Shown: piece after piece, positions 20,201-37,184 of the stretch
How positions within the stretch are numbered: position 1 is the first letter of the stretch
How the letters are laid out: each line of letters opens with the position of its first letter
From: Bacteroidota bacterium
Lineage (GTDB): Bacteria > Bacteroidota > Bacteroidia > AKYH767-A > OLB10
Assembly: GCA_016717325.1 (NCBI GenBank)
Contig: JADKFV010000054.1
Coordinates: 8,788-72,787 of the forward strand
Length of the DNA: 64,000 nucleotides
Reading direction: 5' to 3'
Program-made: the position numbers and the translations under genes
Notes under the pieces: generated by a model
Database searches by the model: none
What the model was told of the DNA's origin: nothing
Seen by the model: only the letters and a program-made list of their open reading frames with translations

Positions 20201-23200
20201 TGCGCTCAGTCCAGTAGCTGTAGCACCAAATTGAGGAGGAGTTGTACTCCATACATAAGAAAATGCTGCTAAACCCCCCGATGTGGTTACTGTTGCAGTT
20301 CCATTTGGAAAACCAGCGCAAGTTGCATTGGTAACTGAAGTTTGACAACTCAGCGGTGAAACAACTGCAATAGTAGTAGCACATTGGCTCGTACATCCTT
20401 TACTGTCTGTAATTAATACTGTGTAACTACCACTTGAAAGACCCGTGGCCGTTATATTAGTTTGGCCATCGCTCCATAGATATGCGTAAGGCGATGTTCC
20501 TCCTGTTACAGAAGCTGTTGCAGTACCATTAGCCGATCCATCGCAATTTAATGAAGTAGAGGTAGCAACACAAGTTAATGGGGCAGGCTGTGTGATGACA
20601 ATAAAGCAAGATGTTGTACAACCGTTTGCATCAGTAACAATTACAGTATAAGTACCGGCATTTACAGAATTAATGGATGATGTAGTTGCCGCTGTAGAAG
20701 TATTCCACAGATATGTATAAGGGGCAACACCTCCATTTACTGTGACTGTTGCTGTGCCATCATTTCCGCCATTGCAACTCACATTAATACCAAATACGCT
20801 GCAACTTAAAGCATTTGAAGATGGCACAGTTACTGAACAAGAAGATGAACAACCTTTGCTATCGGAAATTACCACCACATAAGTTCCTGAAGAAAGACCG
20901 GTAGCGATTGCCGTAGTTTGAACAGGTGCCGTGAGCCAAATATAAGTATAAGGAGCTACACCTCCCGAAGCAACAGCCTGTGCTTTACCATTATTATTAT
21001 TGCAAGTGGCAATATTTAAAACATTTGCATTACAAACTAATTTTGAAGGCTGAGTAATTGTTACGAAACAATTTTTGGTACACCCTTTTGAATCAGTTAT
21101 GGTTACTGTATATAAACCTGCCGCAACACCTGCATTATTAGCAGTGCTTACACCATTTGACCATAAATAAATGTATGGCGAAGTACCTCCGGTTGCAGTT
21201 ACTGTTGCCGAACCATTACTTCCACCATTACATGTTACATTTGTTTTTGTTATTGAACAATTTAACACTGCAGGTTGGGTAACTGCAATGCTGGCATTTA
21301 AAACACACCCTTTTGAATCAATAATTGTAAGCACATAGTTGCCTGCTCCAATATTATTTAAATCTTGAGTAGTAGCTCCATTTGACCATCCATAGGTATA
21401 AGGTGATGTTCCGCCTACCACACTCACATCTATAGACCCATTAGTATTGCCGTTGCACAATGGTCTAACAACAGTATACAATGCAGCTATAGCAGAAGGC
21501 TGTGTTATTGTTACACTACAAGTAGAGCTACAACCAACATTGTCAGTTACAGAAACAGTATAGACACCTGTTGCAAGGTTTATAACTGTTTGAGTTGTTT
21601 TTCCATTGCTCCATAAATAGGTATATGGTGCAGTTCCTCCATTAACAGCAGCACTAGCGGAACCATTTGTATTTCCAAAACAAGTTATGTTTGTGTTGGT
21701 AATAGAACAGCTCACACCAAGTTGAGGTTGACTAATAGTGATTTGTGCACTTGCTGTACATCCATTTGCGTCCGTAACAATACCAGTATACGTACCAGCC
21801 ATCAATCCGGTAGCTAAAGAAGTAGTTGTAGTAGGAACCGTGTTCCAAGAGTAAGTATAAGGTGCTACACCACCAAATCCATTAACACAAGCTGTACCAT
21901 TTGAGCCTCCATTACAAGTTACATTTTGCACACAACCCATTAATGCAAATAGTTGATTTGGTTGAGTAATTGTTACAGAACCAACCTTTAAGCAACCATT
22001 AGCATCAGTAATAGTTACCGTATATGTTCCGGCTGTAAGGCCTATTATGGTTTGAGTTGTTTGACCATTTGACCAAACATAAGAATATGGTGCTAATCCT
22101 CCAATTGGTAGCGCTGTGACAGAACCATTGTTGCCTCCAAAGCAAGAAACATTTATGACACTTGCATTGCATATACATGAAAGCGCACTTGGTTGGGTAA
22201 TGCTAACCGATGCAGTACCTGAACAACCATTATTATCAGTCACTGTTAAAGTATAAATACCAGGACCGATATTAGTTAAGTTAATTGTAGTAGAACCATT
22301 ACTCCACAAATAGCCAAACGGTGCCAAGCCTCCTCCAATGGAAGAAATAATTGTTCCATTAGAACTTCCATTACAAGTTACATTGGTAGCAGAAAGATTA
22401 ACTGAAAGACCCGGTAGCTGACTCACAGTATAACTACAAGAATTAGTACAGCCTGAAACATCGGTAACAGTAACTGTATACGTGCCTAATGCTAAACCGC
22501 TGTTGGTAGAAGTCGTATTGCCGTTGGACCACAAATAGGTATACGGTGAGGTACCGCCACTGGTATTTAAAGTAATACTTCCATTGTTGTTTCCGGAGCA
22601 AGTTATAGGAACTACTGTAGCATTACAAGCTAATGGTAAAGGATTCAAAACACTATAGGTAAATTGTGCTGAGCATCCATTAGCATCAAAAACAATAACT
22701 GTATAGGTGCCTCCTGCAACATTTAACAAGTTTGCTGTAGTTTGAGTTGGGGATGAATTCCATAAATATGAGAAGGGTGCCAATCCACCTGATATTGATG
22801 TTTGAAGAATCTTTCCGTCTGTAGAAGCTTGGACAGGTAGGATTCACAACCGTATAAACAGCATTGATTTGAGGAGGAGAAGAAAGCAGTATATTGGCAG
22901 ATGAAGTGCAACCATTGAAGTCTGTAACAGTAACAGTATACGTATTTGCACTTAAATTAGAGGCTGTTTGTGTGGTTTGACCATCGCTCCATAAATAAGT
23001 ATAAGGCCCAACGCCTCCAACAGGGTCTGCAGTTACTTCTCCATCACTTGCACCAAAACAACTTACATCAGTTCCAATCATTGAGATAAAAATTGGATCT
23101 GGTTCTGTTAAAGTCACAATAACATTCTTGATACAATTTAGCGAGTCGATAATAGTTGCAGTATAGGTACCTCCTCCTAATCCTGTTGTTTGAAATCCCG

Positions 23201-26200: not shown

Positions 26201-29200
26201 TTACATTAGAAGCCGTGGCGCTTGCAGTACCATTTCCTGCACCCGAACAATTTGAATTATCTGTGGCTGAGCATGTTACTGTTGGATTACTTGTATTGCT
26301 CGCAACATTACTTGTGCATGATGATGTGCAACCTGTAGTCATATCCGTAACTGTAACGGTATATACCCCTGCATTCAAACCACTGATGCTGGATGTGGTT
26401 GCTCCATTACTCCAAGTATATGTAACATTGGTAGCCGTGGCGCTTGCCGTGCCATTTGGTGTTGTGCAACTGTTATTGTCAGTTGAAGCACAGGTTACTG
26501 CCGGGTTGGTTGTGTTTGTTCCAACTATCGATTCGCAACTTGCCGTGCAACCAGTAGTTAAATCTGTAACTACCACTGTATACGTTCCGGCTGATAGGCC
26601 GCTTATGCTCGCATCGGTTGAACCATTGCTCCATGAATAACTTACGTTTGTAGCTGTGGCGATTGCTGCGCCATTTCCTGCACCCGAACAATTTGTATTA
26701 TCTGTGGCTGAACAAGTTACAGAAGGCGATGATGGACTACTTCCTACTATCGATTCGCAACTTGCTGTACAGCCCGTAGTTAAATCCGTAACTACTACTG
26801 TATATGTTCCGGCTGATAAGCCGCTGATGCTCGCATCGGTTGAACCATTGCTCCATGAATAACTTACATTAGAAGCCGTGGCGCTTGCAGTACCATTTCC
26901 TGCACCCGAACAATTTGAATTATCTGTTGCTGAGCATGTTACTGTTGGATTACTTGTATTGCTCGCAACATTACTTGTGCATGATGATGTGCAACCTGTA
27001 GTCATATCCGTAACTGTAACGGTATATACCCCGCATTCAAACCACTGATGCTGGATGTGGTTGCTCCATTACTCCAAGTATATGTAACATTGGTAGCCGT
27101 GGCGCTTGCCGTGCCATTTGGTGTTGTGCAACTGTTATTGTCAGTTGAAGCACAGGTTACTGTTGGGCTAGTCGTGTTTGTTCCAACTATCGATTCGCAA
27201 CTTGCCGTGCAACCAGTAGTTAAATCTGTAACTACCACTGTATACGTTCCGGCTGATAGGCCGCTTATGCTCGCATCGGTTGAACCATTGCTCCATGAAT
27301 AACTTACGTTTGTAGCTGTGGCGATTGCTGTGCCATTTCCTGCACCCGAACAATTTGTATTATCTGTGGCTGAACAAGTTACAGAAGGCGATGATGGACT
27401 ACTTCCTACTATCGATTCGCAACTTGCTGTACAGCCCGTAGTTAAATCCGTAACTACTACTGTATATGTTCCGGCTGATAAGCCGCTGATGCTCGCATCG
27501 GTTGAACCATTGCTCCATGAATAACTTACATTAGAAGCCGTGGCGCTTGCAGTCCCATTTCCTGCACCCGAACAATTTGAATTATCTGTGGCTGAGCATG
27601 TTACTGTTGGATTACTTGTATTGCTCGCAACATTACTTGTGCATGATGATGTGCAACCTGTAGTCATATCCGTAACTGTAACGGTATATACCCCTGCATT
27701 CAAACCACTGATGCTTGATGTGGTTGCGCCATTACTCCAAGTATATGTAACATTGGTAGCCGTGGCGCTTGCCGTGCCATTTGGTGTTGTGCAACTGTTA
27801 TTGTCAGTTGAAGCACAGGTTACTGTTGGGCTAGTCGTGTTTGTTCCAACTATCGATTCGCAACTTGCCGTGCAACCCGTAGTTAAATCCGTAACTACTA
27901 CTGTATAAGTTCCGGCTGAAAGGCCACTTATGCTTGCATCGGTTGAGCCATTGCTCCATGAATAACTTACGTTACTAGCTGTGGCGATTGCTGCGCCATT
28001 TCCTGCACCCGAACAATTTGTATTATCTGTGGCTGAACAAGTTACAGAAGGCGATGATGGACTACTTCCTACTATCGATTCGCAACTTGCTGTACAGCCC
28101 GTAGTTAAATCCGTAACTACTACTGTATATGTTCCGGCTGATAAGCCGCTGATGCTCGCATCGGTTGAACCATTGCTCCATGAATAACTTACATTGAAGC
28201 CGTGGCGCTTGCAGTCCCATCTCCTGCACCCGAACAATTTGTATTATCTGTGGCTGAGCATGTTACTGTTGGATTACTTGTATTGCTCGCAATATTACTT
28301 GAGCACGTTGATGTGCAACCCGTAGAAATATCCGTAACTATAACGATATATACCCCTGCAATCAAACCACTGATGCTTGATGTGGTTGCTCCATTACTCC
28401 AGCTATATGTAACATTGGTAGCCGTGGCGCTTGCTGTGCCATTTGGTGTTGTGCAATTAGTATTATCTGTGGCTGAACATGTTACATTTGGATTAACAGT
28501 ATTTGTTCCAACAACCGATGCGCAACTTGCTGTACATCCTGTTGTTAAGTCTGTTACTATTACTGTATACGTTCCAGCTGAAAGTCCGCTAATGCTTGCG
28601 CTTGTTGAGCCGTTGCTCCAAGAATAACTTACATTGGTTGCTGTTGCACTTGCTGTGCCATTTGGTGTTGTGCAATTGGTATTATCTGTGGCTGTGCATG
28701 TCACACTTGGATTAACAGTATTTGTTCCAACAACCGATGTGCAACTTGCTGTACATCCTGTAGTTAAGTCTGTTACTATTACGGTATACGTTCCTGCTGA
28801 AAGGCCGCTAATGCTTGCGCTTGTTGAGCCGTTGCTCCAAGAATAACTTACATTGGTTGCTGTTGCACTTGCTGTTCCATTTGGAGTTGTGCAATTTGTA
28901 TTATCTGTCGATGAACATGTTACACTTGGATTAATAGTATTTGTTCCAACAACCGATGTGCAACTTGCTGTACATCCTGTTGTGAAGTCTGTCACGATTA
29001 CTGTGTAAGTTCCTGCTGAAAGGCCGCTAATGGGTGCGCGTGTTGAGCCGTTGCTCCAAGAATAACTTACATTGGTTGCTGTTGCACTTGCTGTTCCATT
29101 TGGGTTTGTGCAGCTTGTATTATCTGTTGCAGAACATGTTACACTAGGATTAACAGTACTTGTTCCAACAACCGATGTGCAACTTGCTGTACATCCTGTA

Positions 29201-32862: not shown

Positions 32863-33248
32863 ATGGACATTACACATAAAATAGGCAGAAGAAAAACAGC
32901 AGTTGCCAGAATTTATTTAAAACCAGGCAACGGCACTATCATAGTCAACAACAAAGACTATAAAAATTATTTTCCATCTGAGGTTTTGCATCATAAAATT
33001 ACACAAGCCTTTTCTGTATCTAATACAAGTAATATGTATGATGCAAGCGTGAATGTGTTTGGTGGTGGAATGACAGGGCAGGCAGAAGCTGTCCGTTTAG
33101 CCTTTGCCCGTGCTTTATGTGAAATAAATGCAGAACTCCGTCCTCCATTGAAAGCGAATGGGCTGTTAACACGTGACCCCCGAATGGTGGAACGTAAGAA
33201 GCCAGGACAGAAAAAGCAAGGAAGAGATTCCAGTTCTCTAAACGTTAA
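32863..33248 (+). CDS. rpsI: 30S ribosomal protein S9; one A missing at 33211-33215
   Basis: GRRKTAVAR, GGG..GQAEA, LLTRDPRMVERKKPG. One extra A restores the universal tail QKKARKRFQFSKR* (TAA at 33246-33248). Confidence 0.97.
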
Positions 33249-33296
33249 TCCAATTTTCGAAAACATAATATAAATAAGAAAAACTCAGAACGCTGC

Positions 33297-35091: not shown

Positions 35092-35120
35092 AAACCCGCT
35101 TCTATAGAGCGGGTTTTTTT
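35092..35120 (+). terminator. Intrinsic terminator after tsf
   Basis: AAACCCGCT/AGCGGGTTT stem followed by a long T run. Confidence 0.85.
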
Positions 35121-35164
35121 ATTAAGTTTTGTTTTTATATTTCGCAAACCAAATATTTCAAATT

Positions 35165-37184
35165 ATGAAAAAACTGATCTGCCTTATTTTCTTAATCATT
35201 TCAACTTTTAGTTCATACTCACAATGCAACACAGGCAATGCCACAACATGCGTATGTGCTGATGGTTCCATAAAATGTAAACTACTTCCCCGACATTACT
35301 ATTGGACGAAAAATGCTTATGGATCCCACCACCTATACTGAATATTCGCAAACAGGTAATGGAGTTGAAAATGGCCGTCTCCGTATTTCTGTTGCCACGC
35401 CAAATATAGGCCACGGACCATTAACAGTAATGACAACCACTACTTTTGTTTGTGGTACCGACACTTTTTATGGCACATCGCCTGGAACTTGCCCAAATGG
35501 TGATGCCCCAAAACAATTGATTAATCAGAGAGTGTTCTCAAAAAAAGGAAAAACCATGTCTTATTATGATCGGCCGGCCGGTACAATGACATACCATCCC
35601 ACACATCAGCATATGCATGTTGATGACTGGGGAATTTATACTTTACGAATAGCCACATTGGACCCCAATCCACTCAACTGGCCAATAGTTGGCACTGGTG
35701 CTAAGCTTGCATTTTGCCTGATGGATTTAAGTACTTGCACCGCAGAATTTGGAAATTGTGTGAATGATAAAAATGACACATTAGTTAACACAGATTTCCC
35801 CAATTATGGCTTAGGCGGTGGTCAGTATACCTGTTCGCCTGTAGTTCAGGGAATTTCATCGGGATTTGTTGATTATTACGATCAAACTTTAGATGGCATG
35901 TGGATTAATATACCTCCAGGTACATGCAATGGCGACTATTGGATAGTAACCCAAATTGATCCTTATAATTATTTTGACGAAGAAAATGAAAACAACAATA
36001 TAGTGGCTACACCCATTACACTAAAAAAGCAAACACCGTTTGGAACAGGCGGAATCATTGCCAATCTGGGTGCACAAACAATTTGTAACGGAGGCACTAC
36101 CACTCTGCAAGCTAATTTAGGTACTACATACTTGTGGAGTAATGGTGCTACAACACAAACAATTGTAGTTTCTGCCTCTGGAACGTATATGGTAACCGTT
36201 GATGGTTTTTGTGGTGTTACCACATCACCCCCATACACAGTAAGCATGATAACCCCTGCTGTACCTACTGCACAAAACTCTTACTTCATTGCTCCTGCCA
36301 GCACAACGGTTAGTGCTACAGGAACAGGCAAGATTGATTGGTATGATGCTTCGTCAGGTGGTAATTTTTTAGGTACAGGTAATGTGTTTACAACTGGAGT
36401 GCTAAACAATACTACAACATTTTATGCTGAAAATATCGAAACCCAGATTGGCCTTACTGCTTATGCACCACCATCTGCAAACACTATTGGAGGAGGAGCA
36501 AACCACACCGACCAAACACGATTCCTCACTTTTGATGCTTATAAAGATTTTATGCTACAATCAGTAAAAGTATATGCAACGGGTGCCGGCAATCGTTTAA
36601 TAGAATTACGCGATGGTAGTGGTGGTATTCTTGACACTGTAACAGCTATGGTGCCTTCTGGTGAAAGCCGGATCACACTAAATTTTCAAGTTGCAAAAGG
36701 TAGCAATTACCAATTAGGCGTAGGTTCCACCCCAAACTTCTTCCGTAATAATTCCGGTGTGCAATTTCCGTATAATGTAAGTGGAATGCTTGATATTACT
36801 AGCTCTTCGGCTGGTGCTTCATACTATTATTTCTTTTACGATTGGGAAGTAAAAGAGAACGATATTGTTTGCAATAGTTCGAGAGTACCAGCTACGGCAT
36901 TTAATTCCACAACTGGAATCACCAATAACATCAACAGCGTTGTTTGGAATACTTATCCTAATCCTGCAAGTGGATATTTAACAGTTGAATTACCATCATT
37001 ACCCGAAAATTCAAAACTAGAATTAATTGATGTAACCGGGAAAAAAGTTTGGGAACAAAACATAGGCTCAACGAACAAATCATCTATAATAAGTATTGAT
37101 GTAACAAAAATGAGTGCCGGAACCTATTCGTTGAAAATAGAAAACGAAAAGATAAGCGAGCGTAAAATTCTTATAATAGAATAA
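35165..37184 (+). CDS. Lysyl-oxidase-family protein with Ig-like modules and T9SS CTD; extra C at 35288-35291
   Basis: Signal peptide from ATG 35165 joins the main ORF as LLPDITIGRK if one C is removed. Motifs YHPTHQHMH, GAKLAFCLMD, QGISSGFVDYY, WINI, DP.N...E.NENNN. CTD YPNPASG...SAGTYSLKI. Confidence 0.85.

Follow-up and report, generated by a model that had tools for sequence, protein, structure and literature searches.

A lysyl oxidase family protein with type IX secretion signals in an activated-sludge Bacteroidota bacterium, read across a probable assembly indel

Lysyl oxidase (LOX) builds animal connective tissue, and finding a gene of this kind in a bacterium raises the question of whether the bacterium makes and secretes an active enzyme and, if so, what the enzyme would act on. 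We addressed this question for the gene at positions 35165-37184 of a 64,000-nucleotide stretch of contig JADKFV010000054.1 (hereafter the window), which comes from an uncultured activated-sludge Bacteroidota bacterium. A preliminary description of this DNA had proposed that the gene encodes a bacterial LOX exported by type IX secretion (through the T9SS). Our analysis supports, with a probability of roughly 0.75, the reading that the locus encodes a 672-amino acid secreted LOX-family enzyme, that the surplus C interrupting it in the window is an assembly error or at most a private mutation, and that the gene is intact and transcribed in the population.

To begin with the family, a Pfam scan of the 636-amino acid translation matched the Lysyl_oxidase profile (PF01186) over residues 184-252; it scored 38.4 bits, where the cut-off is 20.4, and had an E-value of 1.3e-9. 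Searches of the PDB with full-length homologues were swamped by matches to immunoglobulin (Ig) domains, after which a profile was built from trimmed catalytic domains. With this profile, only human LOXL2 (5ZE3) came out of the PDB at an E-value under 1 (0.0027). The AlphaFold2 model of the LOX domain (pLDDT 87, pTM 0.81) led to the same protein: its only significant Foldseek matches in the PDB were chains A and B of 5ZE3 (E 7.9e-8 and 2.4e-7, probability 1.00), with a TM-score of 0.48-0.50 across approximately 270 superposed columns, and the next PDB match had an E-value of 8e-3 and a TM-score of 0.12. The profile of the topaquinone (TPQ) copper amine oxidases (PF01179, Cu_amine_oxid) gave no match at E ≤ 0.1 in the Pfam scan of the protein, and tblastn found no second LOX copy within the 64-kb window. 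The N-terminal domain belongs to the lysyl oxidase family (PF01186) and has the LOX catalytic-domain fold; the Pfam score and the fold match agree on the identity that the preliminary description had assigned.

We then compared the active site with that of LOXL2, in which the metal ligands are H626, H628, H630 and Y689, the precursors of the lysine tyrosylquinone (LTQ) cofactor are K653 and Y689, and the Ca2+ ligands have been tabulated (Zhang et al., PMC5899467); the Ca2+ site was tested here as D549, L550, E722, D724, N727 and N728. When the profile was aligned with the sequence of 5ZE3, the four histidines of the copper-site motif fell on LOXL2 H623, H626, H628 and H630, with H111, H113 and H115 (codons 35604, 35610 and 35616) on H626, H628 and H630. 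The same alignment places the lysine on K653 (profile GaKlaFClmD against GHKASFCLED) and the tyrosine on Y689 (GytdiY against GCWDMY), and it sets the calcium loop of the profile, fleenennn, against VAESDYSNN, with Asn replacing D724. The N-terminal LPD motif is the presumed, not aligned, equivalent of the Ca2+ ligands D549 and L550. Among the cysteines, the equivalents of the C657-C673 disulfide (C148 and C187 of the 269-amino acid piece) are kept in the alignment, LOXL2 C685 is Phe, and the other conserved cysteines of the LOX domain are C60, C73, C155, C162 and C218. The motif YHPTHQHMH, the lysine and the tyrosine lie exactly where the preliminary description had put them (Table 1), and at the level of the sequence-profile alignment neither the lysine nor the tyrosine falls outside the LTQ positions.

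The patterns HxxHxHxH, K..FC..D and G..D.Y were all kept in 120 of the 120 closest homologues. A wider count was made in 124 aligned sequences, consisting of 123 cluster representatives and the query and reaching down to approximately 32% identity. Each of the 3 copper histidines was kept in 120 of these sequences and the extra upstream histidine in 110, the LTQ lysine in 123 and the LTQ tyrosine in 122, while the position before the LTQ tyrosine (Y201) varied freely between I, V, T, Y, L and S. In the calcium loop, the E was kept in 114, the first N in 111 and the second N in 120 sequences, and in the LPD motif the P was kept in 116 and the D in 105. The copper histidines, the LTQ lysine and tyrosine, and the Ca2+ site are thus conserved down to 32% identity while their neighbours vary, a pattern typical of selection on catalysis. 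Judged from the sequence, the catalytic residues are complete at the LOXL2-equivalent positions, and the complete active site that had been proposed from an alignment by eye is retained. The same conservation argues against the possibility that the domain keeps the LOX fold but is no longer catalytic and works as a module for metal binding or adhesion. Such a module would fit the partial coverage of the Pfam profile and the weak CARDB-like similarity that both Pfam and Foldseek gave for the LOX domain, and we regard it as hardly probable.

The claim that the protein is T9SS cargo was borne out by its 2 ends, an N-terminal signal peptide and a C-terminal domain (CTD) matched by both PF18962 and TIGR04183. 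Between them, the protein is ordered as a short Cys-rich segment, the LOX domain, 2 Ig-like domains and a beta-sandwich of approximately 160 amino acids, followed by the type A CTD (Table 1). Cleavage of the signal peptide would occur near SYS/QC, as far as the sequence suggests. The first Ig-like domain has a weak Ig_7 match, the AlphaFold2 model of the Ig region is all-beta, and Foldseek of the Ig region matched the Ig arrays of Aureispira GhpA. The beta-sandwich (36441-36930) matched nothing in Pfam when the threshold was relaxed to E 10 and is a candidate new domain family. In Foldseek, the C-terminal model mostly drew tandem Ig arrays (GhpA, complement, receptors), besides weak hints of glucuronidase or SGBP-like proteins. 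In a search with the beta-sandwich alone, the module always stood after Ig_7 and before the T9SS CTD. This cassette of Ig_7, beta-sandwich and CTD is also carried in Bacteroidota by M4, M14, reprolysin-like, M43, C1, S8 and trypsin peptidases, by a cupredoxin, and by FG-GAP/VCBS proteins. Because it is common to so many secreted heads, it is a general stalk and not a substrate module specific to LOX.

Table 1. Coordinates in the window of the features of the LOX gene and of the neighbouring genes discussed in the text
Feature	Position	Strand	Details
Sec-type signal peptide with its start codon, MKKLICLIFLIISTFSSYSQ	35165-35224	+	Basic n-region, hydrophobic core; by inspection and identity to P0001
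LOX-family catalytic domain	35274-36050	+	Frame opens at 35274; domain proper begins at the LPD motif
CCCC run with one surplus C	35285-35288	+	+1 frame break between signal peptide and enzyme
Copper-site motif YHPTHQHMH	35592-35618	+	His codons 35595, 35604, 35610, 35616; H-x2-H-x-H-x-H
LTQ precursor Lys in AKLAFCLMD	35703-35705	+	K180 of the intact 672-amino acid protein; equivalent to LOXL2 K653
LTQ precursor Tyr, second Tyr of GFVDYY	35877-35879	+	Y238 of the intact 672-amino acid protein; equivalent to LOXL2 Y689
E-x-N-x2-N-N loop	35979-35999	+	Equivalent to LOXL2 Ca2+ site E722, D724, N727, N728
Two Ig-like beta domains	36051-36440	+	Second is Ig_7 (PF19081), E 7.8e-11, residues 328-389
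Beta-sandwich module of no named family, ~160 amino acids	36441-36930	+	AlphaFold2 strands; most blocks pLDDT 80-93
C-terminal sorting domain (T9SS type A) with stop	36954-37184	+	PF18962 E 2.3e-13, residues 561-634 of 636; TIGR04183 (NCBIfam) E 1.6e-11
Intrinsic terminator-like hairpin and T-run after tsf	35092-35125	+	10-pair stem, 5 GC pairs, then TTTTATT
rpsI, one A short	A-run 33206-33210; gene 32863-33273		Frame broken near the 3' end
Giant SprB-repeat T9SS gene	11237-31623	-	Split into four overlapping open reading frames

As it stands in the window, this protein is not encoded in one frame. The stretch 35165-37184, from the ATG at 35165 to the stop ending at 37184, is 2020 bases long, a length that three does not divide. 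The frame of the signal peptide from 35165 (MKKLICLIFLIISTFSSYSQC...) meets a stop at 35339-35341, and the frame of the enzyme is open from 35274 only. The preliminary description had presented the stretch as a single gene; its start and stop are exact, but it has no one open frame, the +1 break at 35285-35288 having been overlooked. When the run at 35285-35288 is read as CCC, the protein becomes ...KCKLLPDITIGRKML... / ...SIKCKLLPDITIGRKMLMDP..., exactly as in P0001, an intact 672-amino acid protein from other assemblies that is 99% identical and has the same N-terminal start. The remaining open reading frame (ORF) is free of stops. One base was missing at 35288, giving CCC, in 7 DNA runs (X1, X2, X3, X5, X9, X10 and X14), the contigs of which come from activated sludge, wastewater, a bioreactor and one unlabelled sample, and the metatranscriptome runs X25 and X26 likewise had CCC at this position. 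CCCC was not seen in any of the runs examined (7 DNA, 2 RNA). Programmed frameshifting or transcriptional slippage at the C-run was considered and rejected because the DNA of the 7 samples itself has CCC and the RNA contigs agree with it.

Other genes of the window are broken in the same manner. The rpsI gene lacks one A in its A-run, so that it reads ...GQKKQGRDSSSLNV... and the canonical S9 ending KKARKRFQFSKR, followed by the stop, lies in another frame; in runs X1, X2 and X9 an additional A follows 33210 and brings the rpsI ending KKARKRFQFSKR back into frame. This deficit is probably an assembly indel. In the giant gene with SprB repeats, the junctions between its ORFs lie near 22686-22843, 27002-27068 and 28189-28243. 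A surplus base at 22829, in the first junction, was absent in 4 of 4 runs, and the other 2 junctions lie in repeats that no contig covered. Since rpsI, which is essential, and the giant gene likewise carry one-base indels private to this assembly, a systematic assembly error is favoured over biology, and the surplus C at 35285-35288 is very probably an assembly artefact. The practical lesson is that this assembly holds one-base indels that break genes.

If the frameshift were instead real in the sequenced strain, the gene would be a recent pseudogene in which the signal peptide ends as a 58-amino acid dead-end peptide, and a product started from the ATG at 35313 would have neither the export signal nor the LPD residues of the calcium site. 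The window as given does have CCCC and 2 frames, and among the runs there was none with exactly its haplotype, the best word share being 0.97. Set against this, all 7 DNA runs and both RNA runs have CCC, the remainder of the ORF is free of stops and 99% identical to the intact P0001, and the window breaks rpsI and the giant gene with equally private one-base indels. We therefore consider a pseudogene unlikely and the gene intact in the population.

The same runs showed strain variation in the gene. C>A at 35329, which changes Thr to Asn as in P0001, was present in X1-X4 and not in X5, X9, X10 and X14, which instead had C>T at 35414 (variant region 35414-35429). At least 2 haplotypes of the LOX gene thus circulate in wastewater plants. 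In addition, a metatranscriptome contig of low depth (X26, depth 4.4) lacked one base at 36943, in the CTD region, which was not the case in X25; an error in the contig or a difference between strains may account for this.

Regarding expression, metatranscriptome contigs spanned most of the LOX gene at an identity of at least 97%. Such libraries may hold DNA; with this limit, the gene appears to be expressed in situ in wastewater communities.

The protein belongs to a very large Bacteroidota clade. In a whole-library HMMER search, 1803 clusters (at 50% identity) reached E ≤ 1e-3, of which 146 also reached E ≤ 1e-30. Over the catalytic domain, the query was 99% identical to P0001 and 59-69% identical to the 119 other listed homologues. 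Most of the listed homologues have a T9SS sorting domain, which indicates that the enzyme is exported, and the order LOX, Ig_7, beta-sandwich and CTD was the same in approximately 20 of them. NCBI records name members either "lysyl oxidase family protein" or "T9SS type A sorting domain-containing protein". Genomes often have several LOX paralogues, and several metagenome-assembled genomes (MAGs) have at least 2 copies. That LOX homologues exist in bacteria was known from phylogenomics, as the preliminary description had stated, and Bacteroidetes members were recorded by Grau-Bove et al. in 2015 (PMC4448552). In that survey, prokaryotic LOX proteins were mostly single-domain and the first histidine was absent, whereas the clade of the query is multi-domain and keeps the first histidine (110/124). 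The gene is a new member of a large, catalogued and biochemically unstudied family and adds no new principle; what is particular to the window is the assembly-borne frame break and the C-terminal cassette held in common with secreted peptidases.

Some of these homologues have arrangements of their own. In one locus (L005, 1-4929), tandem paralogues differ in their C-terminal modules, with a 1032-amino acid fn3 form directly upstream of a 680-amino acid form, and in L010 and L013 paralogues lie on one contig, approximately 5 kb apart. A single polypeptide, the homologue P0056 (1078 amino acids), has a P-domain and SprB repeats (PF13573) along with the LOX motifs and a T9SS CTD. Three MAG records titled Bifidobacterium (L039, L067 and L079, one of them "Bifidobacterium breve") carry a LOX of the Bacteroidota type with 58-61% identity, and the probable cause is wrong labelling or contamination of the bins.

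Compared with the animal enzymes LOX and LOXL1-4 (PF01186, EC 1.4.3.13; 5ZE3 is the human LOXL2 precursor, PMC5899467), the protein has the same fold and would likewise be extracellular. Shared with them are the H-x-H-x-H copper motif with an extra upstream histidine, the lysine of K...FC..D, the tyrosine of G..D.Y and the Ca2+ loop. In contrast, identity to the animal enzymes is approximately 17-19%, and in the query a beta-hairpin region is inserted after the N-terminal strands, ahead of the histidine motif. The query keeps one disulfide pair by alignment (the C657-C673 equivalents), has neither propeptide nor SRCR domains, and carries its LOX domain at the N-terminus, followed by Ig-like domains, the beta-sandwich and the T9SS CTD.

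Among prokaryotic LOX homologues, our literature search found published enzymology for one only, HTU-LOX of Haloterrigena turkmenica (PMC6452851). It is a Cu-dependent amine oxidase, sensitive to β-aminopropionitrile (BAPN) and of relaxed specificity (PMC6452851), the substrates of which include many free amines as well as aminoglycosides and polymyxin. Its activity sets a precedent that prokaryotic LOX homologues can be Cu-dependent, BAPN-sensitive amine oxidases. It shares with the query its prokaryotic origin, membership of the LOX family, a signal peptide and the catalytic residues. Unlike the query, which is multi-domain T9SS cargo, it is archaeal and single-domain and has no T9SS export, and its specificity is not simply transferable. 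LodA-type lysine-epsilon-oxidases, which are quinoproteins with a cysteine tryptophylquinone (CTQ) cofactor such as the marinocine of Marinomonas, are also secreted by bacteria, and in oxidising the epsilon-amine of lysine they give off H2O2 and NH3. They are functional analogues of unrelated fold and cofactor that have no sequence similarity to the query, the basis for this statement being the lack of any such Pfam match in the protein.

These features suggest a course of events in which cofactor formation, activity, substrate and physiological role are what we infer. The protein would be transported by Sec through its signal peptide, and in the periplasm the LOX domain would fold, form its disulfides and bind Ca2+ and Cu2+. 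Copper and O2 would then oxidise Tyr238 (35877), to which Lys180 (35703) would add, giving the LTQ cofactor. Through the type A CTD, the protein would next be handed to the T9SS and either anchored at the surface or released. Outside the cell, it would oxidatively deaminate primary amines to aldehydes, NH3 and H2O2, with peptidyl lysine and small amines or diamines as the likeliest substrates. The best reading of the sequence is thus a predicted Cu/LTQ amine oxidase that would be exported in two steps, first by Sec and afterwards by the T9SS.

Several points weigh against this reading. The PF01186 match spans profile positions 128-196 of 204 only, that is, the C-terminal third of a model that is biased toward animal sequences, and the HMM alignment across the histidine and lysine segment is weak when taken alone (1.6 bits). 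The TM-score against 5ZE3 is approximately 0.5 only, and of the 5 animal disulfides one is clearly retained by alignment. The exact haplotype of the window was missing from the runs, as described above. Finally, the literature search gave no assay of any LOX of the Bacteroidota clade, nor did it give a paper joining bacterial lysyl oxidase with the T9SS.

Assuming that the enzyme is active, its role could be chemical. It might act as an extracellular amine oxidase of broad specificity that, beside secreted peptidases, scavenges nitrogen by freeing NH4+ from amines and from the side chains of lysine, that produces H2O2 and aldehydes against competitors, or both. The breadth of the substrates listed above that HTU-LOX oxidises (PMC6452851) is consistent with such a role. 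So is the presence of the same cassette on M4, M14, C1, S8, trypsin and reprolysin-like peptidases, which puts LOX among secreted degradative enzymes, and so are the relatives that have several paralogues with differing C-terminal modules. The cassette may, however, be a mere generic display stalk, and this role overlaps with the reading of the locus as a secreted LOX-family enzyme, from which it differs in physiological output only. We consider the chemical role possible, and hold it tentatively.

A different role would be structural, as the preliminary description had tentatively suggested by linking the LOX to the giant filament gene nearby. The enzyme would then cross-link the cell's own giant SprB-repeat filament, or a matrix made by the cell itself, as animal LOX does with collagen and elastin. 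Both proteins are T9SS type A cargo, since the C-terminus of the SprB giant also matches PF18962 (E 7e-13); P0056 joins SprB repeats and a LOX domain in a single chain; and animal LOX acts on peptidyl lysine (PMC5899467). The genomic context speaks against this role. The LOX gene lies 3' of rpsI-rpsB-tsf and a terminator, and 5' of the genes for an asparaginase of type I and for an S41 peptidase. The giant gene lies 3.6 kb away on the opposite strand, past this ribosomal operon, which the preliminary description had correctly placed between the two genes, and past the terminator. The LOX neighbourhoods of 4 relatives have nothing in common with the locus in the window or with one another. Moreover, the C-terminal cassette is common to many peptidases and is not specific to a LOX substrate. 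The suggested link between LOX and the SprB giant therefore found no support, and cross-linking of the filament or of a self-made matrix is very unlikely. An operon or functional link of the LOX gene with its neighbours was rejected as well, given the terminator after tsf, the different neighbours in all 4 relatives, and the RNA contigs, which stop short of the downstream asparaginase gene (weak evidence).

The cassette invites a further, rather improbable, proposal. It could be a shared stalk for display and targeting, on which these Bacteroidota would carry at their surface a set of extracellular heads that modify proteins, namely M4, M14, reprolysin-like, C1, S8 and trypsin peptidases, a cupredoxin and LOX. 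Within this set for capturing and processing protein, LOX would do the oxidative work and would convert lysine side chains to allysine on proteins of prey, of host filaments or of the matrix. If this were true, allysine would covalently glue the cell to its substrate, or the reaction would free NH4+, and bacteria would have their own equivalent of the cross-linking of extracellular matrix, achieved with the fold of the animal enzyme. For the family as a whole, a bacterial LOX that is easily expressed could yield a structure in the active LTQ state, which is still missing for the animal enzymes, and could reveal how bacteria use the oxidation of peptidyl lysine.

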